This document shows positions 4,962 through 58,950 of a DNA stretch of 60,979 bases, piece by piece (within the stretch, counting starts at the first letter, position 1; every line of letters starts with the position of its first letter). The notes under the pieces are model-generated. The model did no database searches, had not been told where the DNA came from, and saw only the letters and a list, made by a program, of their open reading frames with translations. The stretch spans positions 9,111,728-9,172,706 of the forward strand of contig NC_057754.1 of assembly GCF_004010195.1 (NCBI RefSeq), read 5' to 3'. The DNA is from Chiloscyllium plagiosum (lineage: Eukaryota). The position numbers were made by a program, and so were the translations under genes.

Positions 4962-5445
4962 GGGCAGCACGGTGGCTCAGTGGTTAGCACTGCTGCCTCA
5001 CAGCGCCAGGAACTCGGGTTCAATTCCAGCCTTGGGCGACTGTGTGGAGTTTGCACATTCTTTCCGTGTCTGCGTGGGTTTCCTCTGGGTGCTCCAGTTT
5101 TCTCCCACAATCCAAAGATGTGCAGGTTAGGTGAATTGGCCATGCTAAATTGCCCATGGTGTTCAGGGATGTGTAGGTTAGGTACACTAGTCAAGGGTAA
5201 ATATAGAGTAATTGGGTAGGGGAATGTGATGAAGGACTCCTGCCCAAAATGTCGATTTTCCTGCTCCTCGGGGGCTGTCTGACCTGCTGTGCTTTTCCGG
5301 CACCACTCTAATCTTGACTCTGATCTCCAGTCCTCACTTTTGCCTAGGGGAATGTATCTGGGTGGGTTACTCTTCGGAGGGTCGCTGTGGACTTGTTGGG
5401 CCAAATGGCCTGTTTCCACACTGTAGGGATCCTATGATTCTATGA
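4962..5445 (+). mobile_element. tRNA-derived HE1-type SINE
   Basis: A box tggctcagtgg, B box ggttcaattcc, conserved core, CR1-like 3' tail. Carries a PLE insertion. Confidence 0.85.
5228..5344 (+). mobile_element. PLE pLTR fragment (family A) inserted into a SINE
   Basis: Begins gatgaagg... (degenerate hammerhead) and ends with the family tail. TSD taggggaatgt at 5217-5227/5345-5355. Confidence 0.75.
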
Positions 5446-5849: not shown

Positions 5850-6525
5850 GACTTCCAACTCCAACCAATTTTTATAGATGCACCATAGAAAGTATACTAT
5901 CTGGATGCATCATGGCTTGTTCATGCCAAACTGCTCTTCTCAGGCCCATAAGAAATTGCAGAGAGTTGTGAAAACAGCCCAGTCCATCATGCAAGTCAAC
6001 CTTCCATCCACTGAGTCCATCTATACTTCTCGCTATCTCAGGAAGGCAGATAACTTAATCAAAGACCCCTCCCACCCCGGTTATAATCTCTTCCAACTAC
6101 TTCTGTTGGGCAGAAGATACAAAAACATAAACACACATAACAACAGATTCAAGAACAGCTTCTTCCCCGCTATTATTAAACATCTTAATAGACCAAGATA
6201 AATGTTACGGGCATAAGCCCTTCATCATCTCCTGCTTGAATGCTGCCTGACCTGCTGTTCTTTTCCAGCGCCACACTTTTCGACTCTGATCTCCAGCATC
6301 TGCAGTCCCCACTTCCTCCTAGTTATCTTAACAGACCTCTCAAATTTCGAATTTAATGTTGACCTCACTCTTTGTGCACCTTCTCTGCAGCCGTAATATT
6401 GCATTCTTCGCTCTATTCTATTATCTTTATGCACTTGGTATGGTGTGAGCTGCCTGTACTGCACATAAAACAAAGCTTTTCACTGTACTTAGGTACAAGT
6501 GACAATAATAAACCAAATCAAGTCA
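5850..6525 (+). mobile_element. Rex1/Babar-like LINE 3' fragment
   Basis: IKDPSHPGYNLFQLLLLGRRY...RFKNSFFPAIIKHLN is the typical C-terminus of this clade. Confidence 0.7.
6195..6323 (+). mobile_element. PLE pLTR fragment (family A) with a short inverted piece
   Basis: gggcataagcccttcatca joined to the direct pLTR tail. TSD atcttaa(t/c)agacc at ~6182-6194/6325-6337. Confidence 0.65.
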
Positions 6526-6981: not shown

Positions 6982-7198
6982 GTTGAAACTTTATTGCTGG
7001 AACAGCACAGCAGGTCAGGCAGCATCCAGGGAACAGGAGATTCGACGTTTCGGGCACAGGCCCTTCTTCAGGAATGAAGAAGGGCCTGTGCCCGAAACGT
7101 CGAATCTCCTGTTCCCTGGATGCTGCCTGACCTGCTGTGCTGTTCCAGCAATAAAGTTTCAACTTTGATCTCCAGCATCTGCAGACCTCACTTTCTCC
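6982..7198 (+). mobile_element. Young fold-back PLE pLTR element (family A)
   Basis: Perfect 89-bp arms 6982-7070/7075-7163 with a GGAA loop and an unpaired 3' tail. TSD tcaatacattgtt at 6972-6984/7199-7211. Confidence 0.88.
7040..7075 (-). ncRNA. Minimal type I hammerhead ribozyme motif
   Basis: AUUC-CUGAAGA-A-GGGC-CUGU-GCCC-GAAAC-GUC-GAAU: intact core, paired stems I and II, palindromic ACGU stem III. Confidence 0.8.
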
Positions 7199-7512
7199 TC
7201 AATACATTGTTCTCATGTGAAGGGCTGTATGTCTTTTATGACCTTTGATTACACACCACCTCAAGCTTGATGCTTCTTAAGAAAAGTTTCTGCAAAATGA
7301 CTTTGACTTTCTCCTTGAATAACCTGTAACTCCTGGTCTAAAATCTACCTTTTTATGGGAAGGGAATGAAAACAGAAATAATCTAGAATCATGACAAGGT
7401 GTTAGTTGTGGCTCATCATGAGTCAGGTGAGGGGTTCAAAAACATTTCTAAAAACATGAAAATAAAGTTCAGGTTGATATTCTGATGCTGCAGTGAGGGA
7501 GCACTACAACAT

Positions 7513-9020
7513 CATAGAGTCATACAGCATGGAAATAGACCCTTCAGCCCAACCAGTCCATACCGAACATAATCCCAAACTAAACTAGTCCCACCTGCCT
7601 GCTCCAGGCCCATATCCCTCCAAACCTTTCCTATTCATGTCCTTATCCAAGTGTCTTTTAAATGTTGTAATTGTGCACACATCCACTATTTTCTCAGAAG
7701 TTCATTCCACACATAAACTGTCCTCTGTATAAATAATTTACCCTTCATGCCTTTTTAAAAACTCTCTCCTCTTACCTTAAGAATGTACCTACTAATCTTG
7801 AAATCCTCCTTCCTAGGGAAAAGAACTGACCATTAACCCTATCTATATCCCTCATGATGTTACAAACCTCAATCAGGTCACCTCTCAACCTCTTACGCTC
7901 CAGTGAGAAAAGTCTCAGCCTATTCAGCCTTTCTTTACAACTCAAACCTTACATACCCAGCAACATTCCTGGTAAATCTCTTCTGAACTCTCTCCAGCTT
8001 AATAATATCCTCCCTATAACAGGGTGACCAAAACCGGAATCAATATGCCAGAAAGGCCTCACCAATGTCACAGAGTCAGAGATGTACAGCGCAGAAACAG
8101 ACCCTTCCTTCCAACCCGTACATGCCGACCAGATATTCTAACCTAACCTAGTCCCATTTGCCAGAACTTGGCCCATATCCCTCTAAATACGCCTTATTCA
8201 CGTACCCATTCAGATGCCTTTTAAATGTTTTTAAATGCCTCCACCACTGCCTCTGGTATCTCATTCCATACATGCACCACCTTCTGCGTGAAATCCTGTA
8301 TAACCTCAACATGACTTTCCAACTCCTATACTCAAAGTAGTGAGCAATGACGGCAAGTGTGCTAAATGCCTTTTTAACCACTCTGCCCATATGTGATGCA
8401 AACTTCAAAGAATTATGTACCTGAACCCCCCCCCCCCCCCGATCCCTGTGTTTTACAACACTACCCAAGGGCCTATCATTAATTGTAAAAGTCCTACCCT
8501 CTGTTTGCTGTACCAAAATGCAATACATCGCATTTATCCAGATTGAACCCAAGCCCGCTTTTTCCTGCCCATTAACCCATGAGACATTCAGTTATAGCCA
8601 TTGTTGTGACAGGTGACATAAATGAAAGCTTTCCAAAGACAAAGATTCAAAAATAGGATGGTCAGTAACAGGACATTATAGAATTTTGCAGTACATAAGG
8701 AGGCTATTCAATCCATCATCTTTGTATTAGCTCTCAAAGGAGCAACCCAGTGAGTCCCACTCTCCAGTCCTATCTCCGTAGCCATCACTTTCAAATATAT
8801 ATTCAGCTCTCTGTTGAAATCTCCTACAGAATCTGCCTCCACCACTCTCCCAGACAGCGCACCTAACAAGTTATGAGTAAAGAACTTTCTCTTCATTTCA
8901 CTCCTAGCTCGCTTGCTGACAATCTTAAAATTGTGACCTCGAGTTAGACATACCAACTAGTGGAAACAGCATATCCTTCTTTACCCTGACAAAGTTGTTC
9001 AGAATTTTGAACATCTTAAT
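7513..9020 (-). mobile_element. Nested CR1/HER1 LINE 3' fragments
   Basis: ORFs 8148-8552 and 8708-8956 resemble the CR1 ORF2 C-terminus. Confidence 0.8.
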
Positions 9021-9134
9021 TTTGAGAAACCAAGAACTCAATAAAATGTGTTTGACACAAAGCTGATTTATTTAACCTCCAATTCAGAAATCAGCCCAGT
9101 TACAGGGATTATTAATAAAAAATGAAACAAGTTA

Positions 9135-9563
9135 AATTGGAAGGGGACTAATATACTGGCAGGGAAATTTGCAAGAACTGCTCGGGAGGATTTAAACTAG
9201 TAAGGTGGGGGGGGGGGGGACCCAGGGAGATAGTGAGGAAAGAGAGCAATCTGAGACTGGTACAGTTGAGAATAGAAGTGAGTTAAACAGTCAGGGCAGG
9301 CAGGGACAAGGTAAGACTAATAAATTAAACTGCATTTATTTCAATGCAAGGGGCCTAACAGGGAAGCCAGATGAACTCAGGGCATGGTTAGGAACATGGG
9401 TCTGGGATATCATAGCAATTAGGCATTTGGATGGGTATATGAATAGGAAGGGTTTAGAGGGATATGGGCCGGGTGCTGGCAGGTGGGACTAGATTGGGTT
9501 GGGAAACCTGGTCAGCATGGATGGGTTGGACCGAAGGGTCTGTTTCCATCTCTATGACTCTAA
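9135..9563 (+). mobile_element. Internally deleted CR1 (ORF1 end/ORF2 start fused to the 3' end)
   Basis: LNCIYFNARGL...DIIAI is joined directly to RHLDGYMNRKGLEGYG. Confidence 0.75.
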
Positions 9564-15537: not shown

Positions 15538-15731
15538 TCAAAAAGTGTGGTGCTAGAAAAGCACAGTAGGTCAGGCAGCATCTGAGGAGCAGGAGAAGCA
15601 ATGTTTTGGGTATAAGCCCTCCTGATGAGTCTTATGCATGAAACATCCCTTCTTCTGCTCCTCAGATGCTGCCTGACCTGCTGTACATTTCCAGCACCAC
15701 AATTTTAGATTTTGATCTCCAGCATATGAAG
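15538..15731 (+). mobile_element. Fold-back PLE pLTR element (family A), older
   Basis: Imperfect inverted arms centred at cctgatga plus tail. TSD tccaggtgtg at 15528-15537/15732-15741. Confidence 0.75.
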
Positions 15732-17295
15732 TCCAGGTGTGGCCTCACCAACAACCTACACAGTTGTAACATAAACTCCCTCCTTTTAAACTCAATCACT
15801 GTTACAATGAAGGACAAAATTCCATTTGCCTGTTGAAAAGTGTGGTGCTGGAAAAGCGCAGCAGGCCAGGCAGAATCTGAGGAGCAGGAGAATCAACGTT
15901 TCAGGCATAAGCCCTTCTTCAGGAATGAGACTGGTGTGCCGAGGGGGTGGGACGGAGAGGTTGAGAAGAAGATTGTAGGTCAAGAGGGTGGTGCTGAATC
16001 CGGGGGTTGGGATTGAGATAAGGTGGTGGGAGGGGAAATGAGGAAGCTGAAGAAATCTACATTCATCCTGTGTGGTTGGAGGGTTCCTAGGCGGAAGATG
16101 AGGCGCTCTTCTTCCAGCCGTCGTGTGGCCAGGGTCTGGCAATGGAGGAGGCAAAGGACCTGCAAGTCCTTGGCGGAGTGGGAATTACCTGTTGTACCTG
16201 CAAACCAACCTTCTGTGATTCATGCATGAAGATACCCTTGCACAGCAGCATGCCAAATGTTTTTTTACTGTTTAAGTAAGAGTCCTTTTTAGTGTTATTT
16301 CTATCAAAATTGATGGCTTCACATTTATTAACATTGTACTCTATCTGCCAGACCTTTGCCCATTCACTTAGACTATCTATGTCCCTTTGCAAAGTTTCAC
16401 AATCCTCTGCACACTTTGCTTCACCACTTTGTCATCTACAAACTTCGAAATAGTACAGATGGTCCCCAACTCCAAATCATTTTTGGAAATTATAAACAAT
16501 TGCGGTTCCAACATTGATCCCTGAGGCACGGCCCAAGTCACTAGTCGCCAACCAGCAATTATTTAATCAATCCTCTCTCCATGCTAATACATAACTCGTA
16601 ATGCTGTGTACCTTTATCTTATGCAGTAGCCTTTTGTGTGGCACCTTGTTGAATGCCTTTTGGAAATCTAGAAACACCACAACTACTGGGTCCCCATTGT
16701 CTACCATGCTCATGTCTTCATAGAATTACGCAAATTGGTTAAACATGACCTGCCTTTCATGAACCCGTGCTGCGTCTGCATAATGGGACAATTTCAATCT
16801 GGATTTCTTGCTAATTCTTCCTTGATGGTAGATTCAAACATTTTCCCCATTACAGAGGTTAGGTCAACTGGCCTATAATTCCCCATCTTTTGTCTACCTC
16901 CTTCTGTAAACAGTAGTGTCATATTTGCTGTTTTCCAATCAGCTGGAACTACCCCGGAGTCCAGTGAATTTTGGAAAATTACCATGAACGCATTTGCTAT
17001 TTCTCCAACCATTCTATTTTAGTACCTCGGGATGCATTCCATCATGGTCTGGAGACTTGTCTACCTTTAGCTCCAACAGCTTGCCTAAGACTACTTCTTT
17101 TATGATAATGCTCATTTCTAGGTCCTCACCTACCTTAGCCTTCTTGTCAATTACTGGCATGTTTCTTCTGTCTTCCAGCGTAAAGACTGACACAAAATAC
17201 TTGTTCTGTGCCTCGGTCATTTCCTCATTTCCCATTATTGCATCCCCCTTCTCATCCTCTAAAGGACCAATGTTTAGCTTGCCATCTTTTTTATT
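15732..17295 (-). mobile_element. CR1 LINE ORF2 (RT) relic, interrupted by a PLE
   Basis: KSPDHDGMHPEVLK, DWKTANMT, NYRPVDLTS, QRDIDSLSEWAKVWQ. Confidence 0.85.
15831..16190 (-). mobile_element. PLE 3' fragment (family A): GIY-YIG C-terminus, hammerhead and pLTR
   Basis: Encodes RRLEEERLIFRLGTLQPHRMNVDF. Hammerhead-like attc-ctgaaga-a-gggc-ttat-gcct-gaaac-gtt at 15926-15891. Confidence 0.8.
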
Positions 17296-17740: not shown

Positions 17741-17874
17741 ATGATTTGGAGGTGCCAGTGTTGGACTGGGATGTACAAAGTTAAAAATCACACAACACCA
17801 GGTTATAGTCAAGGAGCGTCGCTCCGAAAGCTAGTGTGCTTCCAATTAAACCTGGTGTTGTGTGATTTTTAACT
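17741..17874 (-). mobile_element. Deleted fold-back PLE pLTR element (family C)
   Basis: Arms aaaaatcacacaacaccagg / cctggtgttgtgtgattttt with a partial hammerhead. TSD aactaagaa(a/g)ctgct at 17726-17740/17871-17885. Confidence 0.75.
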
Positions 17875-18130: not shown

Positions 18131-18280
18131 GCTATGCTCCCACTCTAACAGGTACCCACACTTTTGGATTTGGCCCCTCCCTACTCTCAAAAGTCTCAAA
18201 CCCAAACCCACTGGTCTACTTCCAGTCTCACAGGTCTCTCTCCCTTACTGTACTCTCTAACCCACACACACCCAACTCCA

Positions 18281-18439
18281 GTCTGGATTAGAGTGGTGCT
18301 GGAAAAGCACAGCAGTTTAAGCTTTTGCCTTAAATTTCGATTTTACTGCTCCTCAGATGCTGCCTGAACTGCTGTGCTTTTCCAGCACCACTCTAATCTA
18401 GACTCTGGTTTCTAGCATCTGCAGTCATTGTTTTTACCT
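18281..18439 (+). mobile_element. Fold-back PLE pLTR element (family A variant)
   Basis: Inverted arms plus tail. TSD acacccaactcca at 18268-18280/18440-18452. Confidence 0.75.
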
Positions 18440-19345
18440 ACACCCAACTCCATAAAACCATCAGAAATATGAATAGGAGTAGGCCATTCAACCCGTCAAG
18501 ACTTCTGCATTATTCAATTGGATCACGCAGAGGGTGGTGCATGTATGGAATGAGCTGCCAGAGGAAGTGGTGGAGGCTGGTACAATTACAACATTTATAA
18601 AACATCTGGACAGGCATATGAATGGGAACATATAGAGGGATATAGGCCAAGTGCTGGCAAATGGGACTAGATTAGGTTCAGATATCCAGTCGACATGGAC
18701 AAGTTGGACTGAAGGATCTGTTTACATGCTGTACATCTCTATGCCTCTACAACTCCGCTCCCAAAACCCGTCGGGACAGGGAGTTCCAAAGACTCACAAC
18801 CCTCTGATAAGAGATTCCTCCTCATCTTAATCTTAAATTCGCACCTCTTAATTCTGAGACTATGTTCTCCAACACAGGTCTCACAGTAACTTTTAAGCCT
18901 AAAAACAAGATCACGATGGGAAAAGTTTGGGAAGCATTGTGTTAGAAAGTAAAATTCACAACCACATGAAATGTTTGATGTGACTAGCTTAGGTGCTTCA
19001 AGAGGAGCGTAGGCGATTGTATGTGAGAAAACAGAATAGAAAGCAAACAGGCTGACAAGGTATATGGAATGTGTTGTATATCATTGAACTATGACATAGT
19101 GGGCAAAAAGGTATAGGACAGAGATGTGCTCTACCATTCCATGAAATCAGTACTTGATCTGACTCCACTTACCTGCCTTAATGCCATAACTCATGATATT
19201 CTTGCTGATAAGGTATCTGTCCATCACAGTCTTGAATATACTTAATGGCCCAGCTTCAACAGTATTCTGCTGTCAATAGTTGCACAGATTTATTGAGAGA
19301 GAAAAAAACCTCATCTTTGTCCTAAATAGGCAGTCCCTTAGTCTG

Positions 19346-21297: not shown

Positions 21298-22280
21298 TGC
21301 ATCTTCAGTGAGCCTCTGGATGAAGCACTGCTGCTGTTTCCTGCTTTCTATTTATATGTTTGGGTTTCCTTGGGTTGGTGACGTCATTTTCTATGATGAG
21401 GTCATTTTCTGTTCTTTTTCTCAGGGGGTGGTAAATGGGATCCAAGTCAATGTGTTTGTTGATAAGAGTTCCGGTTGGATGCCATCCTTCTAGGAATTCT
21501 CGTGCATGTCTCTGTTTTGCTTGTCCTAGAATGGGTGTGTTGTCCCAGTCGAAGTGGGGAAGGAAAATCACCGATAGTGTCTTCAAAAAGAATGGATACC
21601 TAATGAACATAGTCTGCCGATTTCTCAGCAACAAACCCAAACAAGCAGACAAAGCGTGTCCAGAAACCCTAGCCACTCTCCCCTACATCAAAGACATTTT
21701 GGAAATGACTGCCAGACTACTCAGACCCTTTGGTATCATAGCAGCCCACCAACACACTAAAACAGCAGCTAATTAACTTGAAATACCCTATACAGCCAAA
21801 ACTAATGTCATTTACAAAATACTGTGCGAGAACTGTAACAAACACTACATTGGACAAACAAGCAGAATACTAGCCTCCAGGATACATGAACATCAACTAG
21901 CCACAAATTGACATGACCCTCTCTCACTAGTATCCTTACATACAGATAAGGAAGGACACCACTTTGACTGGGAGAACACACCCATTCTAGGACAAGCCAA
22001 ACAGAGACATGCACGAGAATTCCTAGAAGCATGGCATTCCAACCTGAACTCTATCAACAAACACATTGACTTGGATCCCATTTACCACCGCCTGAGAAAA
22101 AGAACAGAAAATGAGATCATAGGAAATGATATCACCAACCCAAGGAAACCTAAACATATAAATATAAATCAGGAAACACCAGCAGTGCCTCAATAGGAGG
22201 CTCACTGAAGATGGTACCTAGTATGGTGACGAAATATCTGAAAATGAATCTTACAGCTCAGCGAGCAAACCTACATCCAT
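21298..22280 (+). mobile_element. PLE (family B, Poseidon/Penelope-like): inverted 3' segment plus direct RT-thumb/GIY-YIG relic
   Basis: Encodes VFKKNGY...TLPYIK...NVIYKILCENCNKHYIGQTSR...REFLEAWH. 21298-21555 is an inverted copy of the 3' end. Confidence 0.88.
22202..22241 (+). ncRNA. Hammerhead ribozyme motif (family B, partly decayed)
   Basis: UCA-CUGAAGA-U-GGUACC-UAGUAU-GGUGAC-GAAA-UAUC-UGA. Confidence 0.6.
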
Positions 22281-22719: not shown

Positions 22720-23443
22720 GTGGTCTTCCATCTTCCCAATACAGAAGAGCCACCCACCAACGCACCCTCCACTCCCAGCACCTTCACTTTCCGCCGCAAC
22801 AGGTGTAAAATCTGCACCCCACATCTCTGTCTGAGGCCCTAAAAGATCCCACCAGGTCTGACAGAGATTTGCCTGCCCATCCAAACACCTCATCTGCTCT
22901 GTCCATTGCTCTCGATTTGGTCTCCTCTACATCGGGGAGACAGGACGCCAAATCACGAAACATTCCAGAGAACATCTCCTGGACACACGCACCAAACAAC
23001 ACCACCACCCTGTGGCTGACCACATCAACTCCCTTTCCCACTCCACCAAGGATATGTAACTCCTGGGCCGCCTCCACCACAAAATCCAATCCACCTGAGG
23101 CCTGGAGGAAGAACACCTGATCTTCCGCCTTTGGACCCTCCAACCACTCGGCATCAATGTCGACTTCACTAGATTCCAAATCTCCCCCCCAACATCCCAG
23201 ATCCAACCCTTCAACTCGGCACCTCCTTCCAACCTATCCTCTCCACCCTCCCCTCTAACCTATCACCGTCAAGCCCCTCCTGCAAGTACCTATCATCTTC
23301 CCATCGATCTTTCCCCCGAGCCCCACCCCTACCCTCCTATTTATCTCTCAGCCTACCCCACTCCCCCCGACATTCCTGATGAAGGGCTTATGCCTGAAAT
23401 GTTGACTCTCCTGCTCTTTGGATGCTGCCTGACCTGCTGTGCT
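22720..23443 (+). mobile_element. PLE (family A, Neptune-like) GIY-YIG relic with pLTR
   Basis: RRNRCKIC linker, LYIGETGR...REH at 22925, LEEEHLIFRLWTLQPLGINVDF. Decayed hammerhead ctgatga-a-gggc-ttat-gcct-gaaa at 23376. Confidence 0.85.
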
Positions 23444-24182
23444 TGTCCCAGGGACAGGACAGGTTGGGATACCTCTGATGGGGGCGGTTTGTTCAATAAC
23501 TGACGTTGCTGGTCCAGGGACAGAGCACGTTGCGATGGCACAGGATTGGGGTTCATTCAGTGTCTGACCTTGAGCAGTCCTCACAACTCATCATCTGCAG
23601 GAACAATTCTGCACTCAGAAAGAGTTCAAAGAAAGGACTGCTTCAAGTCTCTGCCACCTGTATCCTGCAGCAATCCACATACAAAGAGCAGCTAAACGCA
23701 TTATATTTATTTTCCAATTGTTTTACAGTGATTCACCACAGTCATGACAGCTTACTGTCAATCTCATATTTGAAAGTGAGTTCCAATTGTGGGGCGGATT
23801 GAGGTGACGTTTATTGCGATTTACAGGTCAGTTACAGCATCCAGCAAAAAAGGCAAAAAGGCACACAAAAAGCTTCAGAATGTCTTAACTTATACACTTC
23901 AAGCTCAGAGCGCATATGCTCCCCCTTTGATTACTATTGGTCAGCTGAGCCAAGTTGTCCCTCTGGAATTGGCTCTCTTGTACAGCATCTTATACAATTG
24001 AAGCTTGCTTCAGCAAAACGACAAAGCAGTAGTCAGGCTTGTAGTCCACCCCTGTCCTTCATGATGTTTTCCAAACTCTTATCTCCCTTCTTGAGCCTTT
24101 TCACAATGGATAGCGTATTCAAGTAACATTTGCCAGCTGTTAACTACCAATTAGATAAATTTCTCACTACAGGGAATATGAA

Positions 24183-26939: not shown

Positions 26940-28005
26940 TAGAGACAAAAAAACTGTGCATTCTGGAATCTAAAGTACACAGGTAGGAGGCTGAGAGCCA
27001 GGCAGTATCAGTAGGTGGAGAAGTCAACGTTCTTCAGGACTCGGTTTGGGTGGAATGGGGTACTGCCGATAAAGGGAGAAGTGACAGAGGGTTTTGGGTG
27101 AGGAGAGGGTGGTGAGATAGTGATAGGTGAACACAGGTAGAGGGCACCGCCTAAGTGGGAGGAATGAATCCAGTTGATAGCTATAACGTAAGGTCAGTTA
27201 ATACCCATTTATATTCCCTTCCCATTCCCTCTCCAACATAACCATTCTTGGTGTCCTCCACTGCCACAGTGAATCAGACTACAAATTGGAGGAACAAAAT
27301 CTCACCTTCTGCCTGGGTAACCTACAGCTCAGAGGACCTGATAGAGGTTTATAAAATCATGAGGGGCATAGATAGTTAAGTAGACAAGGTATTTTCCTTG
27401 GGGTGGCAAAGTCCAGAATTAGAGGGCATAGGTTTAGGGTGAGAGGGGAAAGATTTAAAAGGGACCCTAAGGGGCAACTTTTTCACACAAAGAGTGGTGT
27501 GTGTATGGAATGAGCTGCCAGAAGTGGTGGAGGGTGGTACAATTACAACATTGAAAAGGCATCTGGATGATTGTATGAATATGAAGGGTTTAGGGGGATA
27601 TAGGCCAAGTGTGGCAAACGGGACTAGACTAGGTTAGGATATCTGTTTGGCATGGACGAGTTGGACTGAAGGGTCTGTTTCCATGCTGTACATCTCTATG
27701 ACTCAACATTGAGTTCTCCAATTTCAATTTCCTTCCCATCCCCCGTCTCCCTTTCCAGCCCCTCCTCCTCCTTTCCTCTGACCAGCCCTTCCTTTCCATT
27801 ATCAACCAGATTCATTCCTTCCATCGACCAACTAGGCAGGTACCCTCTACCTGTATTCATCTATCACTACCTCACCACTCCCCCCTTTATCTGTAGCTCC
27901 CCTTACCCCCAGTCCTCAAGAAGGGTTATACCCGAAACATTGACTTCTGTATCTCCTGATGCTGCCTGGATTGCTGTGTTCTTCCAGCCTCCTGCTCATC
28001 TAAAA
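26940..28005 (+). mobile_element. PLE (family D): inverted pLTR, direct GIY-YIG C-terminus and pLTR, split by a CR1 (27339-27703)
   Basis: KLEEQNLTFCLGNLQLRG / NIEFSNF across the CR1. Hammerhead-like agtc-ctcaaga-a-gggt-tat-accc-gaaac-att-gact at 27911-27945. Confidence 0.75.
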
Positions 28006-31830: not shown

Positions 31831-32219
31831 AATGAAGCGTCTGTTTATTCTACATTAGTAATTATAAATCTAATCATTACCCAACGGTCACTCTATTTCA
31901 GCTTGACCATGTACATACATCTGCTTCCTTTTCTGCCTTATCATGTTCTGTCTGGTTTTGCTCCAGTGAACTTCCTATGGTCAAATTCAATTGTGAAATT
32001 GCCCAGCCAGTCTCTTAATCGAGAATGGTATCTGCTCTCAAAGTTTCTTATCATGGGCCTTCAGAGTATCCGCAAAGGCCAATTCTCAACCTGCAAATCT
32101 TTGAGCATGTGAGCCAGGGTGACAATGTGGTAGCGAATCTAAACTGGAGGATTATTATCTTTGCCATCATTCTGCCTCATCATGAATACATTATGACACA
32201 AAGTGTGATGCAGCTAATG

Positions 32220-32383
32220 CTGCAAATGTGTTGCTGGAAAAGCGCAGCAGGATTCCTGAAGAAGGGCTCATGCGCGAAACGTCGATTCTCTTGCTCCTTG
32301 GATGCTGTCTGACCTGCTGCGCTTTTCCAGCAACACATTTTCAGCTCTGATCTCCAGCATCTGCAGTCCTTACTTTCTCCTCC
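32220..32383 (+). mobile_element. Fold-back PLE pLTR element (family A) with hammerhead
   Basis: Short inverted arm, then CUGAAGA-A-GGGC-UCAU-GCGC-GAAAC-GUC (32256-32283) and tail. TSD gtgatgcagctaatg at 32205-32219/32384-32398. Confidence 0.82.
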
Positions 32384-32755: not shown

Positions 32756-32966
32756 ATTAGTTAGGCCACTTTTGGAACACTGCCTTCAATTCTGGTCTCT
32801 CTGCTCTAAGAAAAGTGTTGTGAATTTTGAAAAAGTTCAGAAAAGATTGAGAAGGATGTTGTAAGGGTTGGAGTCATGATTTGGAGATGCCGGTGTTGGA
32901 CTGGGGTGTACAAAATTAAAAATCACACAACACCAGGTTATAGTCCAACAGGTTTAATTGGAAGCA

Positions 32967-33001
32967 CACTAGCTTTCGGAGCGACGCTCCTTCATCAGGT
33001 G
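32967..33001 (-). ncRNA. Minimal hammerhead ribozyme motif
   Basis: CAC-CUGAUGA-A-GGAGC-GUC-GCUCC-GAAA-GC-UA-GUG. Confidence 0.8.
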
Positions 33002-33237
33002 ATAGTAGAGGGCTCAATCCTAACACAGAATTTACAGCAAAAATTTACAGTGTGATGTAACTGAAATTATATATTGAAAAATTGATTGTCTGTTAAGCCT
33101 TTCATCTGTTAGAACACAGTGATAGTTTCACTTCTTTCATGTGTAAATCACAAAACCTTTTTTTTAAAAAAGATTCATTTACATCACACTGTAAATTTTT
33201 ACTATAAATTCTGTGTTAGGATTGAGCCCTCCACTAT

Positions 33238-33272
33238 CACCTGATGAAGGAGTGTCGCTCCGAAAGCTAGTG
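33238..33272 (+). ncRNA. Minimal hammerhead ribozyme motif
   Basis: CAC-CUGAUGA-A-GGAGU-GUC-GCUCC-GAAA-GC-UA-GUG (U-G wobble in stem II). Confidence 0.78.
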
Positions 33273-34924
33273 TGCTTCCAATTAAACCTATTGGACTATA
33301 ACCTGGTGTTGTGTGATTTTTAACTTTGTAAGGGTTGGAGGATTTGAGCTATAGGGAGAGGCTGAATAGGCTGGGGCTGTTTTCCCTGGGGTGTCGAAGG
33401 CTGAGGGTGACCTGACAGAAGTTTATAAAATTATGAGAGGCATGGATACAGTGATAGCCAAGGCCATTTCCACAAGGTATGGGAGTCCAAAACTAGAGGG
33501 CATAGGTTTAAGCTGAGGGGAAAAATCTTAAAAGGGCTTAAAGAGCAATTTTTCACAGTGTGGGTGGTGCGCAAATGGAATGTGGAGGCTGACACAATTA
33601 CAACATTTAAAATGCATCTGGATGATATGAATAGGAAGGGTTTGGAGGGATATGGGCCAAACACTGGCAAATTGGACTAGACTAACTTAGGAAATCTGGT
33701 TGACAATCATGAGTTGGACTGAAGGATCTGTTTCCGTGCTGTGCATGCCTGACCCCAAGTGGTGCCAGCTTCTCATGGCTATTAAGAACAGTATTGCTCT
33801 GGTTCAAAGAGAGCAGGCTGCAGGGAGCTTGTATTTCATTAAATATGGATGGATCTTGGACAATCTAATACTTGTTTTTATAACAGGAAATAAGTTTAAG
33901 AGCTAGATTAGGAGAAACTATTTCTTCAACTGGGGAATCCAGAATGAGGAAGCACAGTCTTAAAAGAGTCCAGAGTGAAATGAGGAATAACTTGTTCACA
34001 GAAAGGCTTATGGATATCATGACCAGTCTTCCCCAACGCTGTAAATGTCGGATGTCCTGTAAACTTCTGCAATGGCAGTTGATAGAATTTTGTTGAAGAT
34101 AACAAAGCACGTGGCTCACAGTCCAGACAATGGAATTGAGGTGCAGATGGGCAATGATCTACTGTAATGGTGCAGCAGATGTAAGGGAATAAATGGTCTG
34201 CTTCTGTTCCTATGTTCGGGTTGCAATCTCTCCAGCAATAATTGTCATTTAGAGGCAACTAATGATGTTCAGTGTCTGATCCAGAACTGTCCCAGGTGGA
34301 GGACAAGTTGTGATATCTCTGATGGGAACTGTTTGTTCAGGGCCCAGGGACAGAGCAAGTTGTGATGGCAGAGGAGTGGAATTCATTCAGTGTTTGACCC
34401 TGAGCAGCACTCACAACTTACTGTCTGCGGCTACCACTCTGCTCTCAGAAAGAGTTCAAGGGATGGACGGCTTCATCAAGTCTCTGCCACTTGTATCCCA
34501 CAGCAATCCACATACAATGAACAGCTACAAGCATTACATTTATTTTCCATTTGTTTTACAATAATTCACCACAGTTATGACAGCTTACTGTTAGATCTCA
34601 TATTTTAATGAGAGTCTGAGTCGTGGGACGTATTCAGGTGATCTATATTGCGATTTACAGCTCAGTTACAGCAGACAGCAACAAGGCACAAAGGCAAAAA
34701 GGGCACATTAAAAGCTTCAGAATGTCTTAATTATACACTTCAAGCTCAGAGCGCGTATGCTCCCCCTTTGATTACTATTGGTCAACGGAGCCAAGTTGTC
34801 CCTCTGTAATTGGCTCTCTGGTACAGCATCTTAATACAATTTAAACTTGCGTCAGCAAAATGATAAAGCAATACACAAGCTTGTAGTCCACCCCGAGTCG
34901 TTCATGACGTTTTCCAGACTCTTT

Positions 34925-48159: not shown

Positions 48160-51100
48160 TAGAGAACAGTACAGGCTCTTTGGCCCTTGATATTATGCTG
48201 ACCTTTTATCCTACTCTAAGATCAAACTAACCTTCATACCCTTCATTTTACTATCATCCATGTGCCCATCCAAGAGTCGCTTAAATGTCCCTAATGTATC
48301 TGACTCTACCACCACCGGTGCAGTGCATTCCACGCACCCACCATGTTCTGTGTAAAGTATTGACATCTGACATCTCCCCTAAACCTTTCTCCAATCACGT
48401 TAAAATTATGCCCCCTTGTGTTAGCCATTTCTGCCATTCACTCTATCTATGCGTTTCATCATCTTGTACATTTTTATCAAGTTGCCTCTCATCCTTCTTC
48501 ACTACAATGAGAAAAGCCTTAGCTCCCTCAACCTTCCTTCTTAAGACATACCCTCCAGTCCAGGAAGCATCCTGGTAAATCACCTCTAAACCTTCTCTAA
48601 AGCTTCCGCATCCTTCTTTAATGAGGCAACCAGAACTGAACACAATATTTCAAGTCTGGTCTAACCATGGCTTTATAGAGCTGCAGCATAACCTCGCGGC
48701 TCTTAAGCTCAATTCCCTTGCTCATGACTTCCAAGACACCATACGCCTTCTTAACAACCCTATCAACTTGGGTGGCAACTTTGAGGGAACTATGGACATA
48801 AGCCCTACGATCCCTCTGTTCCTCCACACTATTGGCAACCTGTTTGCAACAAAGTGACTCTTTTGAGGTTTTAAACTGAGTAAACTTCGCTTTCCCACAA
48901 CACACCTCAAATCAGACATTTTAACTCGATATATTATAATTGGAAGAGGTTTGGATATGTAAATCTTTAAACCTGGAGAACAAGTTTCCAAGCTGTTTCA
49001 AAATGTTACCCTCTATTTCATAAAATAAACTGCCTAATGCTTGATTTGGCTACAGTAGGACTATTGTAGGTTTGGGTATCTGACACCAGGGAGGATGTAA
49101 AGGCTATGGAGAGTGTACAGGAGAGATTCACTACCAAAGCTATTGGTAAACCTATAAAATGGAAGCAGAAGTAGGCTGTTCTGCCCACCTAGTCTCATTC
49201 AACTGCTGACTGCCCATAGTTAAAAATCACACAACACCAGGTTATAGTCCATCAGGTTTATTTGGAAGCACTAGCTTTCAGAGCACTGTGCCTTCATCAG
49301 GTGCTCCACAACCAGCTAATGAAGGAGCAGTGCTCCGAAAGTTAGTGCTTCCAAATAAACCTGTTGGAGTATAACCTGGTGTTGTGTGAGTTTTAACTTT
49401 GTACATCCTAGTCCAACACCAGCGTCTCCAAATCATGACTGCTTGTGAAATTCTCTCTTCTCTTCAATTCTTCTTTGAAACGTACAGGTTGTTCTCCTAT
49501 AATGCATATTCATTAAACACAATTTGGTTGTAACGTGATTTGTGAATAGCAGACTAAAATAAAGCGAACGTCCATTCGCTGTTACGCAGTTCAATGTCCA
49601 GCACCAGATGAACAACAAAACCCAGCTTCAGGATCCTCTGTCTGCAAAATGCAAATTCAGTGTGTTCAGCTAAAACAGGAATGCAATCAGGGCACAAGCT
49701 TTGAAACTTAGCTTGAAATTGGGAATTGTAGTCTACATTTAGAAGGAACTTTATTTCAAATCGGGTGGAGAATATTCAGGAGATCTGGACTTCCACGTCA
49801 GCATCATGTGGTCAGTCAGTTGTACACTTTCTGGTGACGAGCTTTGTGAAAGTTACAGTGCTGTAGTCAGTGATTTTAGTGTTAAATTTACTGTATTATT
49901 TCATTAAAATGTATGATTTAAAGATTAACTTAGACTGTGCTATCATTTGGGTTAGGTTAGGAGGATTTGAGTTACGGGGAGAAGCTTAACAGGCTGGGGC
50001 TGTTTTCCCTGGAATGTCGGAGGCTGAAGAGTGACCTTATAGAGGTTTACAAAATTATGAGGGGCATGGATAGGGTAAATAGGCAAAGTCTTTTTCCTGA
50101 GGTTGGAGAGTCCAGAACTAGAGGGGCATAGGTTTAGGGTGAGAGGGGAAAGATATAAAAGAAACATAAGGGGCAACGTTTTTACAGAGAGTGGTACATG
50201 TATGGAATGAGCTGCCAGAGGAAGTGGTGGAGGCTGGTACAATTGCAACATTTAAGAGACATTTGGATGGGCATATGAAGTGCTGGCAGGTGGGACTGGA
50301 TTGGGTTGGGATATCTGGTCGGCATGGACGGGTTGGACCGAAAGATCCATTTCCATGCTGTACCTCTCTATGAACTACTATTTTTGTTTCGATTTTTACT
50401 GATATTTTTGGTGGCTTGCCCCAACCCTGTTTTTCCCATAGGCCCAATTATTTACATTGTGCAAGTTTCTATAACACGGTGTCACACGGGAACGCAATTA
50501 CTGCGTTATCGGAGAACTACCTGTACTGTTCAATCTGCTCCCACCAAACTGTCAGACAGTACATTCCAGACTGGAATAACTCACTGAGGGGGAATGAAAT
50601 GTTTTCCCACAGTGACCCATTGCAGCAGTGAAACTGCTGTTTGAGTTTTTATTAATCATTCATGGGATCTGGAGTTCTCTGGCTAGGCCCGCAATTGTTG
50701 CCCATGCCTAATTGCCAGGAGGGCAGTGAAGTGTCAAACACATTACTGCAGGCCTGTGGTCACATGGAGGCCAGATCAGATAAGGATGCCAGAATTCCTT
50801 TTAAAAGGATATTTGTCAACCAAATTGTTTTAAAATGATAATTAGCAATGTTTATATGGTCACCATTAGACTCCTAGAATCATAGAGTTGTACAGCATGG
50901 ACACAAGCCTTCAGTCCAACTCATCCATGCTGACAAGATATCCTAAATTAATCTCGTCCCATGTGCCAGCAATTGGGCCATGTCCCTCTAAACCCTTCCT
51001 ATTGATGTACGCATCCAGGTGCCTTTTAAATGTTGTAATTGTACCAGCCTCTCCCACTTAATTCCATACACACCACCCTCTGCATGAAAAAACTGCCCCT

Positions 51101-52775
51101 TCAGTCCCTTTTAAATCTTGCCCCTCTTACCTTAAACCTACACCCTCTATAGTTTTGAATTCTTCCACCCCAGGGAAAGGACCTTATCCAATGATCCTGT
51201 CCATACCCCTCATGAGTTTATAAACCTCTATAACGTCACCCCTCAGCCTCCAGTATTCCAGGGAAAATAGCTCCAGCCTCTCCCAACATCTCAAATCATC
51301 CAACCCGGACAATATCCTTGACCCCTTTTGTTTATTCCATATTTTTAATTGAATCCAACCTCACTATCTGCCACGCTTGGATTCAAACTCACCCTCAGAA
51401 AATTAGCCTGGGACATCGAATGACTAACAATGACATTACACCAAGACACCGTTTTCCAATTTAGTTCCAACTTGTCTTTTCCATGAGCAGAGATAACAGG
51501 AGCTGGATGAAGGGTGAAATACAAGAGCAGCCCTGGATAGTGTTGTAGAACAGAGTTGAGAATATGTGTAGGGTATATGCAGGCAGCGAAAGCATTAAGT
51601 TCTGAGTTTTGTGAAACAAGAAGTTCAGCTGAGCATGACTCAGATCAGATAAGAGCTTACAGTTAACAATGGAGTGCTGGAGGCAAGGGTAATGGGTTAG
51701 CAAGGTGGAAAAGCATTCATTATGTCGAGCCACTTACCAAGATGAGGTAGCATTCAGTATGTAACATCAGTTAACAAGGTGAAAAGTATTCATTACGAGA
51801 AGTCAGTTATTTATTGTGTAACAATAAATATCTTAATCTCTATCATTAACAATCACTGATTGTAATGGTCACCTAATCAATATGTATGTTGCCTTATCTA
51901 GATGCTCCTCCTGTAAAATGACAATATAGTTCATTGAGAAACTGCTGTTCCAGAGAAGACCGTGAACTCATGTCTCTGTGCACGTGGGCGATCGTTCTCC
52001 CTCCCTCCAGGGCCCAGAATAAAGATGAAGGAGTTAAAACTACAGTGTCTCTGAGCATTTTTCTTCGACTGAGGGGGGAAATGGGACAAGAGAGGGACCT
52101 GGGGTGCAGACACATAATTCTTTGAAGTTTGCATCACATATAGACAAGGTAGTTAGAAAGGCGTTTGGCACACTTGTCTTCATTGCTCAGTTCTTTGAGT
52201 ATAGGAGTTGGGACGTCATGTTAAGGTTGCACAAGACATTGGTGATGCCTCTTCTGGAATACTGTTCTGGTCGCCCAGTTATAGGAAGGATATATCAAGC
52301 TAGAGACAATTCAGAAGAGATTTACCAGGATGTTGCTCGGAACAGAAGGTCTGAGTAATAAAGAAAGGGCTGCATAGACTGGGACTTTCTCCACTGAAGC
52401 AAAGGAGTTGAGGGGCAGTCTGATAGAGATTTATAAAATCATGAGAAGTATAGACAGAGTTAATGATAGTTATCTTTTCCCAAGGATGGGGGATTTCAAA
52501 ACGAGAGGGTACATTTTTAAGGTGAGAGGAGAGAGATCTAAAAAATATTTTTTTAAAAAAACACACAGAGTTGTTCGCATGTGGAATGAACTTCCTGAGA
52601 AAGTGCTGGCTGTGGGTACAATTAGGTTTAAAAGACATTTAGAGAGATACATGGATAGGAAAGGTTTGGAGGGATATGGGAAGGTGCAGGCAGGTGGGAC
52701 TAGTTTAGTTTGGGATTATCTTTGGTATAGACTTGTTGTGAGATATTAAAAGGTTTATTTGCTCTGCTGACCTGC
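48160..52775. mobile_element. Several CR1 3' fragments on both strands (48160-48830 -, 49950-50373 +, 50878-51320 -, 52085-52775 +)
   Basis: ORF2 C-terminal motifs (VRPDLKYCVQFW, WNELPEEVV). Confidence 0.75.
49218..49436 (+). mobile_element. Fold-back PLE pLTR element (family C) with two decayed hammerheads
   Basis: Inverted arms around 49303-49313 with cores ctgatga (minus) and ctaatga (plus). Tail on the right. Confidence 0.78.
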
Positions 52776-58743: not shown

Positions 58744-58950
58744 TCATGATTTGGAGATGCTGGTGTTGGACTGCGGTGTACAAAGTTAAAAATCACACAA
58801 CACCAAGTTATAGTCCAACAGGTTTAATTGGAAGCACACTAGCTTTTGGAGTGACGCTCCTTCATCACCTGATGAAGGAGCGTCGCTCCGAAAGCTAGTG
58901 TGCTTCCAATTAAACCTGTTGAACTATAACCTGGTGTTGTGTGATTTTTA
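58744..58950 (-). mobile_element. Fold-back PLE pLTR element (family C)
   Basis: Arms centred on ttcatca-cc-tgatgaa. TSD tctttgaagtat at 58732-58743/58951-58962. Confidence 0.85.
58866..58900 (+). ncRNA. Minimal hammerhead ribozyme motif
   Basis: CAC-CUGAUGA-A-GGAGC-GUC-GCUCC-GAAA-GC-UA-GUG, fully paired. Confidence 0.8.

Follow-up and report, generated by a model that had tools for sequence, protein, structure and literature searches.

The window analyzed here comprises 60,979 nucleotides of the Chiloscyllium plagiosum genome (contig NC_057754.1, positions 9,111,728 to 9,172,706), and all coordinates below count from its first nucleotide. A short insert proper at positions 32874–33325 was bracketed by 15-bp direct repeats, 32859–32873 and 33326–33340 (both plus strand), which were identical at 15/15 positions and represent the two copies of a target site duplication (TSD). 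The first 5 nt of the right copy double as the end of the element, and the microhomology at the two ends of the insert was 5 and 2 nt. The target site is itself a repeat, and its flanks translate into a frame resembling what we take to be the end of a CR1-type LINE ORF2. Contigs from related copies of this repeat showed empty-site joints that skip the insert (32858 to 33335 and 32861 to 33333). Within the insert, two inverted arms (32909–33065 and 33174–33330) are complementary over 157 nt with 7 mismatches. The 108 nt between them (33066–33173) are unpaired and comprise the inner end of the longer arm and the inversion junction at ~33172–33174. The z-score of the fold was −32.8, and equally good folding was obtained in 0/100 shuffles. 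These values bear out the original prediction of a TSD-flanked insert with long inverted arms at this site, and its expectation that read-through RNA folds into long dsRNA also held, as a predicted fold of the 157-nt arms.

Both arms derive from a Penelope-like element (PLE), of which they are the terminal repeat; its ORF specifies reverse transcriptase (RT), a zinc-finger linker and a GIY-YIG nuclease. Family positions are numbered backwards from the T of the ATG of this ORF. The long arm (32874–33172, minus strand) is the PLE terminal region in minus-strand sense, beginning ~296 nt ahead of the start codon and including the tail. It aligned without a break with family copies L002–L010, and the BLAST alignment with L005 spanned −303 to 0. 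Its outermost 35 nt (32874–32908, minus) form a one-sided tail, which terminates at the ATG (32877–32875, minus) with which the autonomous ORF starts. The short, tail-less arm (33174–33330, plus strand) corresponds to −191 to −33 of the same region in plus-strand sense. It carries a TATAAA box at 33203–33208, located 30 nt before the A at 33233 (position −130), the putative +1 of the family mRNA, where short relatives end with an extra G. The counterpart of the TATAAA box on the minus-strand arm is mutated to TGTAAA. A poly(A) signal, ATTAAA, is present at 32953–32958 (minus) in the long arm and, as its mirror, at 33281–33286 (plus) in the short arm. Family transcripts from a related species end at the equivalents of 32941 and 32938.

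Copies of the family extend more than 1 kb upstream of the arm, into an ORF that we surveyed in 20 of 150 protein matches with their surroundings, picked for long open frames. RVT_1 was matched in L145 (E = 1.1e-7), one of the three long frames scanned, and Pfam returned no match in the two other long frames or in three C-terminal pieces. A DKG motif and a CX4CxxC linker were found in L149 and L152, and the parent ORF contains a GIY-YIG region with two internal cysteines. An atlas look-up (score 0.97), useful as a lead, returned clusters with GIY-YIG on 31% and 18% of their members, the best named cluster being that with 31%. The tail ran straight into the ORF in 5/6 stretches that contained a sense arm plus downstream sequence (L144, L145, L149, L151, and L152), and the same five copies showed partial tandems that form a pLTR upstream of the ORF. 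At the pLTR–ORF boundary of L151, a tandem duplication of ~100 nt restarts in the tail and repeats the start of the ORF, which may reflect priming deeper within the ORF.

The framing by an inverted arm and a tail also occurred on ORF-bearing copies of 2–4 kb (L143, L148, L149, L150, L154, and L156). In long copies, the inverted arm often lay on the 5′ side and the tail at one end only. The insert is the short end of a continuum with these long ORF copies, and the proposed link to Penelope-like elements was borne out, as the arms continue into the RT/GIY-YIG ORF in family copies. By the definitions in the accessible text of PMC8557442, where a CX2-5CxxC zinc-finger linker between RT and nuclease marks Neptune and is shared with Nematis, the sequence places the parent as a Neptune- or Nematis-type PLE. 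An adjacent inverted 5′-truncated copy and a one-sided tail of 30–40 bp are standard PLE features in the available parts of PMC8557442, PMC3846280, and PMC2377424, where insertion units also have a pLTR and a TSD of variable length. The family likewise has RT with DKG, GIY-YIG, pLTR tandems, and the inverted truncated copy with tail and TSD. Compared with the insertion units of endonuclease-bearing PLEs (Penelope/Poseidon, Neptune, Nematis) in these accounts, the insert shares the head-to-head arms, the one-sided tail, the TSD, and the parent ORF; it differs in having no ORF between its arms, and most insertions of its family are stump-sized. The locus is an ordinary PLE insertion.

Each arm contains a minimal type I hammerhead motif, one at 32967–33001 (minus; C3 at 32998, predicted cut after CUA at 32970) and the other at 33238–33272 (plus; C3 at 33241, predicted cut after CUA at 33269). 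In each core, stem I comprises 3 bp and stem II 5 bp, and an extra A follows A9; helix III is absent from both except for the palindrome AGCU. A strict canonical hammerhead scan missed both motifs because of the extra A after A9. An Rfam scan of the whole window with E up to 1 returned no hammerhead family, and its only matches were miRNA-like hairpins below their gathering scores. The features of minimal PLE hammerheads, i.e., the conserved core, the extra base after position 9, the G10.1–C11.1 pair, and the palindromic remnant of helix III, were all present. In the part of PMC4209133 (Cervera and de la Pena 2014) that we could draw on, the minimal hammerheads of metazoan PLEs share the type I core, the unpaired base between 9 and 10.1, G10.1–C11.1, and the palindrome in place of helix III. 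The predicted motifs described here differ in that stem I has just 3 bp. The assertion that an intact hammerhead lies on each strand was therefore correct for the motif on both strands, but the motif is of the minimal type, so that its intactness, and not activity, is what can be stated. The monomer assayed in PMC4209133 did not cleave, according to the same portion of that paper, which also already mentions dual motifs on opposite strands, 100–700 bp apart.

The two hammerheads of the insert are one motif duplicated. In the whole RNA, the arms are predicted to pair with each other and bury both motifs: the pair probability of stem II was 3e-18 and 1e-16 (~1e-17). Viroid-like RNAs with ambisense ribozymes have a hammerhead in each polarity and a rod-like fold. 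The insert resembles them in its motif in each polarity and its rod-like fold, but its motifs are a single duplicated sequence, pair together, and are chromosomal, with a TSD. Folding of the ribozyme in each polarity, which characterizes such RNAs, was not found in the model, where these stem II probabilities mean that the stem would never form in the whole RNA. The viroid-like architecture that had been suggested for the insert is not supported, and opposite-strand hammerhead pairs in animal genomes need not mean viroid-like RNAs.

The very high copy number anticipated for the family was corroborated. A 20-mer from the arm had 16,287 exact matches genome-wide. For a closer survey, 63 stretches of 10 kb picked at random were combined with 77 loci that surround listed 20-mer matches on contig C1 and with the window; together they yielded 70 head-to-head pairs and 56 solo arms. 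A tail on one arm only was present in 59 of these pairs, whereas 9 had no tail and 2 had two. The sample is biased against very short arms, as 55/70 pairs came from loci picked by the exact 20-mer in the first 21 Mb of contig C1; the random stretches (630 kb) contributed 11/70. Scaled up, these 11 pairs per 630 kb correspond to roughly 6 × 10^4 fold-backs of the family. Inner ends were compared in the 52 pairs left after removal of a segmental duplicate and of six others in which gaps exceeded 25 nt. A fully intact hammerhead motif in both arms was found in only 6/52 of the sampled fold-backs.

The outer ends of the fold-backs lie at two fixed sites just upstream of the start codon. Tail arms ended at 0 to −2 in 52/58 cases and tail-less arms at −31 to −43 in 56/58. 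The TSD measured 10–17 bp in 48/58, mostly 12–13 bp. Microhomology between element and target averaged 2.0 and 1.7 nt at the two ends, compared to ~0.8 nt by chance (42/58 scorable). The tail-less arm was the longer one in 36/52 pairs and the tail arm in 14/52, with 2/52 equal (p = 0.003 on the 50 unequal pairs). As the tail-less arm is often the longer, a separate template must have supplied the tail. Arms belonging to the same insertion differed at 7.1% of sites compared to 9.4% in shuffled pairs, and shared 13 rare variants (shuffled mean 2.3, maximum 7). They come from a single source, or were homogenized later; gene conversion could account for the similarity.

We consider it probable that the insert consists of two 5′-truncated PLE ends, set head to head in a duplicated target by one landing event in which both strands were primed internally, and that it is a dead end and not a parent of hairpins. 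The GIY-YIG/RT protein would nick the two strands ~12–15 bp apart. Sense RNA would template the extension of each 3′ end, which would start at the tail end for one strand and at about −36 for the other, and the two cDNAs would then be joined at their inner ends. Because of their location in the mRNA, at ~+6 to +40, the hammerheads would be passengers. Hairpin copies would serve poorly as templates: their RNA would terminate at the poly(A) signal, ahead of the priming sites, and they are without the ORF sequence past the tail, which, if the anole element is a guide, may be required for binding.

In vitro, the anole PLE (Anolis Poseidon PAc; Frangieh et al. 2024, PMC11167929) nicked and extended both strands, with two internal starts bounding the tail and uncleaved RNA as template, as described in the accessible part of that work. 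The same steps would fit the fold-backs described here, where they are deduced from end positions in the genome. The anole element belongs to another clade, and its ORF starts within the hammerhead, whereas here the tail ends at the ATG. It also primed without homology to the target, in contrast to the microhomology of 1–6 nt observed here. Inverted copies are left unexplained in the available text of PMC11167929, and tandem and inverted structures are ascribed to 'still undefined features' of the PLE cycle in that of PMC8557442.

The same arms could have been produced by self-priming, with one cDNA (or an antisense template) folding back at a small palindrome and copying the second arm from DNA. 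We regard this as unlikely, since a tail is uncopyable from a strand without one and a longer arm is uncopyable from a shorter one, and the tail-less arm was the longer in the 36 pairs mentioned above. Microhomology to the target at both outer ends also speaks against it. The rare variants common to both arms would be expected from self-priming, and at the locus the tail arm is the longer arm, as this model permits. Moreover, some junctions lie within palindromes (stem II, and a junction with 258 copies described below), and it was from palindromes at inverted junctions that self-priming was proposed for rotifer Penelopes, as stated in the accessible sections of PMC3846280.

Internal priming of both strands also differs from twin priming of LINE-1. 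There, the inverted segment does not duplicate the 3′ end, and priming occurs at the poly(A). The two processes are alike in that two primers at one cut site give rise to an inversion (PMC4859970, accessible part). In contrast to LINE-1, both primers here start in one short region, and for this reason the arms are duplicates.

The inner ends were also unevenly distributed: 81/104 were located at −135 to −105, and 12/104 further upstream than −136. The zone from −132 to −123, which contained 61/160 inner ends, lies 28–32 nt after TATAAA. This box was present in 34/42 long copies, 28, 30, or 32 nt before the A at −130, and the sequence around this A fits what we take to be the vertebrate initiator consensus. 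A start site at −130 is suggested by these motifs together with the DNA fossils. The pile-up of inner ends is ~10 nt wide, with many ends that do not reach +1.

The base preceding the +1 A was scored by hand over the first 100 matches listed. Where it was not the genomic C, it was G in 78/100 (first 100 of 1477 matches, one subfamily) and in 73/100 (first 100 of 480 matches, the subfamily of the insert itself). As controls, G made up 31/100 two bases inside and 12/100 one base outside (Fisher p = 3e-11 and 4e-19, respectively). Among the first 30 loci of the 1477-match set, 21/22 G cases were true ends with varied upstream sequence. A subfamily variant was discarded as the explanation of the extra G, because only 1/22 G loci was a long copy and long copies had C in 47/50. 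An untemplated G is an accepted mark of the cap in LINE-1 and SVA according to the accessible part of PMC4859970, and the extra G of the fold-backs resembles the cap-derived G of LINE-1 as a mark of a capped 5′ end. Judged by this resemblance, the extra G in short relatives likely marks RNA that was copied up to the cap. The common arms of 100–130 nt may thus have been templated by the capped 5′ end of uncleaved mRNA, with the enzyme running off at +1 and copying the cap as an extra base. A cap-type G would indicate a sense template, and it was present on both arms of one element (L227/L228); both observations count further against self-priming. A search of the open literature returned no paper that describes this start-site and cap signature for PLEs, or that traces their fold-backs to run-off or to a G derived from the cap.

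Cleavage by the hammerhead was considered as a source of the inner ends and rejected, because 1/104 lay near the predicted cut at −93 (−96 to −90). Both strands may nevertheless have been primed and the short arms ended by stalling of the RT, either at the folded hammerhead or where the ribozyme had cut the RNA, instead of at the cap. Inner ends cluster beside the hammerhead in both PLE families of the window, a hairpin can form over −134 to −113, and several tail arms end at −112 to −118. The peak, however, is on the 5′ side of the structure, next to none of the ends surround the predicted cut, and stalling would not add a position-specific G at the place predicted from TATAAA. We therefore find this explanation improbable, and copying of the mRNA to its cap remains the reading that we follow.

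Transcripts were available from run X20, a 3′ poly(A) single-cell library of a related species, of which ~2 in 100 reads were read; the reads came from several family copies and are not assignable to the locus. Shortly past ATTAAA, at −62 and −65, family reads ended in poly(A) that was untemplated. At these two sites, reads with poly-T loose ends numbered 290 and 393 (683) in one mapping, and 363 and 438 (801) on L152. The reads showed no sharp start or end in this 3′ poly(A) library, which is unsuited to showing cleavage. The poly(A) site is located upstream of both priming sites, so that ordinary mRNA would offer the priming sites nowhere but at its 5′ end. The great number of 100–130-nt arms would be accounted for in this way; read-through or circular RNAs alone would give long or complete copies. 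Both arms of the locus reach past +1 (to ~−296 and −191), and arms beyond +1 would require a template of another kind, either tandem RNA from read-through or circular RNA. We infer that the locus belongs to a minority that needed a longer read-through template.

For the combined reading of the family, we see an even chance. It holds that the fold-backs are tens of thousands of fossil landing products, primed at two sites by the start codon from uncleaved capped mRNA that was copied to its cap, that the poly(A) site makes the mRNA 5′ end the main template, and that the hammerhead is a switch. Lying within the mRNA's first 40 nt, the hammerhead may act as a self-decapping or tandem-cutting switch. 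The fixed ends, the asymmetry of the arms, the cap-type G in two families, and the placement of the poly(A) site provide in-genome support for internal initiation. The family informs on PLE integration more than the locus itself does, and gives a model that is testable at low cost. Through the fold-backs, hairpins able to form long dsRNA and poly(A) signals that face outward are dispersed in very many copies. As each fold-back sets a poly(A) signal on both strands, it could truncate host transcripts.

The original prediction went further and proposed a self-propagating, non-autonomous class of ribozyme hairpins, in which ambisense hairpins are transcribed, self-cleave, perhaps circularize, and are re-copied by PLE proteins. 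Such a class would show many copies with one junction and one tail orientation, and this pattern was not found. The junction 23-mer of the locus occurred once in 3.56 Gb as an exact match, its junction 28-mer once in the genome with up to 2 mismatches allowed, and a 141-nt query across the junction was spanned by the locus alone (40/228 candidates scored). In the 52-pair set, identical inner-end pairs numbered 2 in a first pass, compared to 2.3 expected from independent ends, and 3 after refinement, compared to 1.2 expected (p = 0.11); 49/52 junctions were distinct. Unique internal junctions, which the prediction itself had named as the observation that would speak against it, were thus found at the locus and essentially throughout the family sample. 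With sharing at chance level, the proposed class is not supported, and a few short hairpin lineages may exist in the family.

Some junctions do recur, as would be expected if hairpins were re-copied (L181/L183, and a junction 20-mer from the window copy at 58744 with 258 exact copies). Of the first 30 copies of the latter, 15 had the tail on one arm and 15 had it on the opposite arm; among the 27 simple copies left after removal of three compound loci, the counts were 12 and 15. This junction was found in more than one subfamily, with its two arms usually of the same type. It is a hot spot and not a lineage, because the tail occurs on either arm about equally and multiple subfamilies are involved. 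Mixed events, with hairpin RNA supplying one cDNA, may fit the 50:50 tail side, and rare re-copying of hairpin RNA may occur. Transcripts of the family in a related species and the existence of non-autonomous PLE derivatives (the retrozyme preprint 10.64898/2026.07.22.740005, accessible part) would also be in line with re-copied hairpins. The uniqueness of the locus junction, the scarcity of pairs with both motifs intact, the predicted burial of stem II, and a poly(A) site that precedes the priming sites all weigh on the other side. The ambisense self-propagating reading is largely refuted, and we rate it as highly improbable; the dead-end landing product described above is preferred.

The non-LTR retrozymes of this preprint are, like the insert, non-coding, PLE-derived, and equipped with a type I hammerhead. 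As far as its available text describes them, they are head-to-tail arrays with hammerheads on one strand, whereas the insert is a head-to-head pair. At least two head-to-tail units with same-strand hammerheads, as in retrozymes, were not found; the insert has one motif per strand, inverted.

Two further observations concern the sampled loci. L032 and L035 (G000:C1:1168663-1171682 and 1679603-1682622) have identical junction, TSD, and flanks, 0.5 Mb apart. They are a segmental duplication or an assembly duplicate, a pitfall for counts of shared junctions, and L032 was excluded as a duplicate of L035 with the same flanks. Compound insertions with at least three arm pieces were observed at L106, L126, L130, L131, L048, and L059, which may have arisen when the enzyme changed templates more than once or when an element inserted again within an older copy.

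Ten smaller relatives of the insert had been listed in the window. Those at 17741, 49218, and 58744 indeed belong to the same family, but the other seven belong to a second PLE family. Six of them (5228, 6195, 6982, 15538, 18281, and 32220) matched the second family, whose arm has no real similarity to the arm of the insert; the copy at 875 was below the BLAST cut-off and was assigned by eye. The copies at 5228 and 6195 are single arms. A hammerhead core on both strands was found in 0/10 of the listed relatives, and those at 875, 5228, 6195, and 17741 had no core at all. Copies of the second family in the window are located at 875–1011, 5227–5345, 6205–6322, 6982–7200, 15538–15921, 18280–18450, 23377–23451, and 32219–32382.

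The second family is more abundant, with 108 arm matches in 630 kb of random sequence. Its hammerhead is of a different minimal type (ACGU palindrome) with the same geometry and is equally far from the family's 3′ end; the TATA-like box is weaker. A related nuclease ORF with 29–35% identity lies upstream of its arm. The extra G was observed in 56/100, compared to 20/100 in a control that probably includes a subfamily variant. In L166 (3747–4891), two nuclease-coding copies of this family lie head to head, a long form of the fold-back anatomy. The copy at 6982–7163 has 89-nt arms with 100% complementarity and a 13-bp TSD, and must be very young because its arms are fully complementary. The window also contains four long, older inverted repeats (21300–22213, 49991–51279, 8094–9546, and 27101–27886), which are 76–90% complementary and 400–1200 nt apart; these are probably oppositely oriented LINE or SINE copies.
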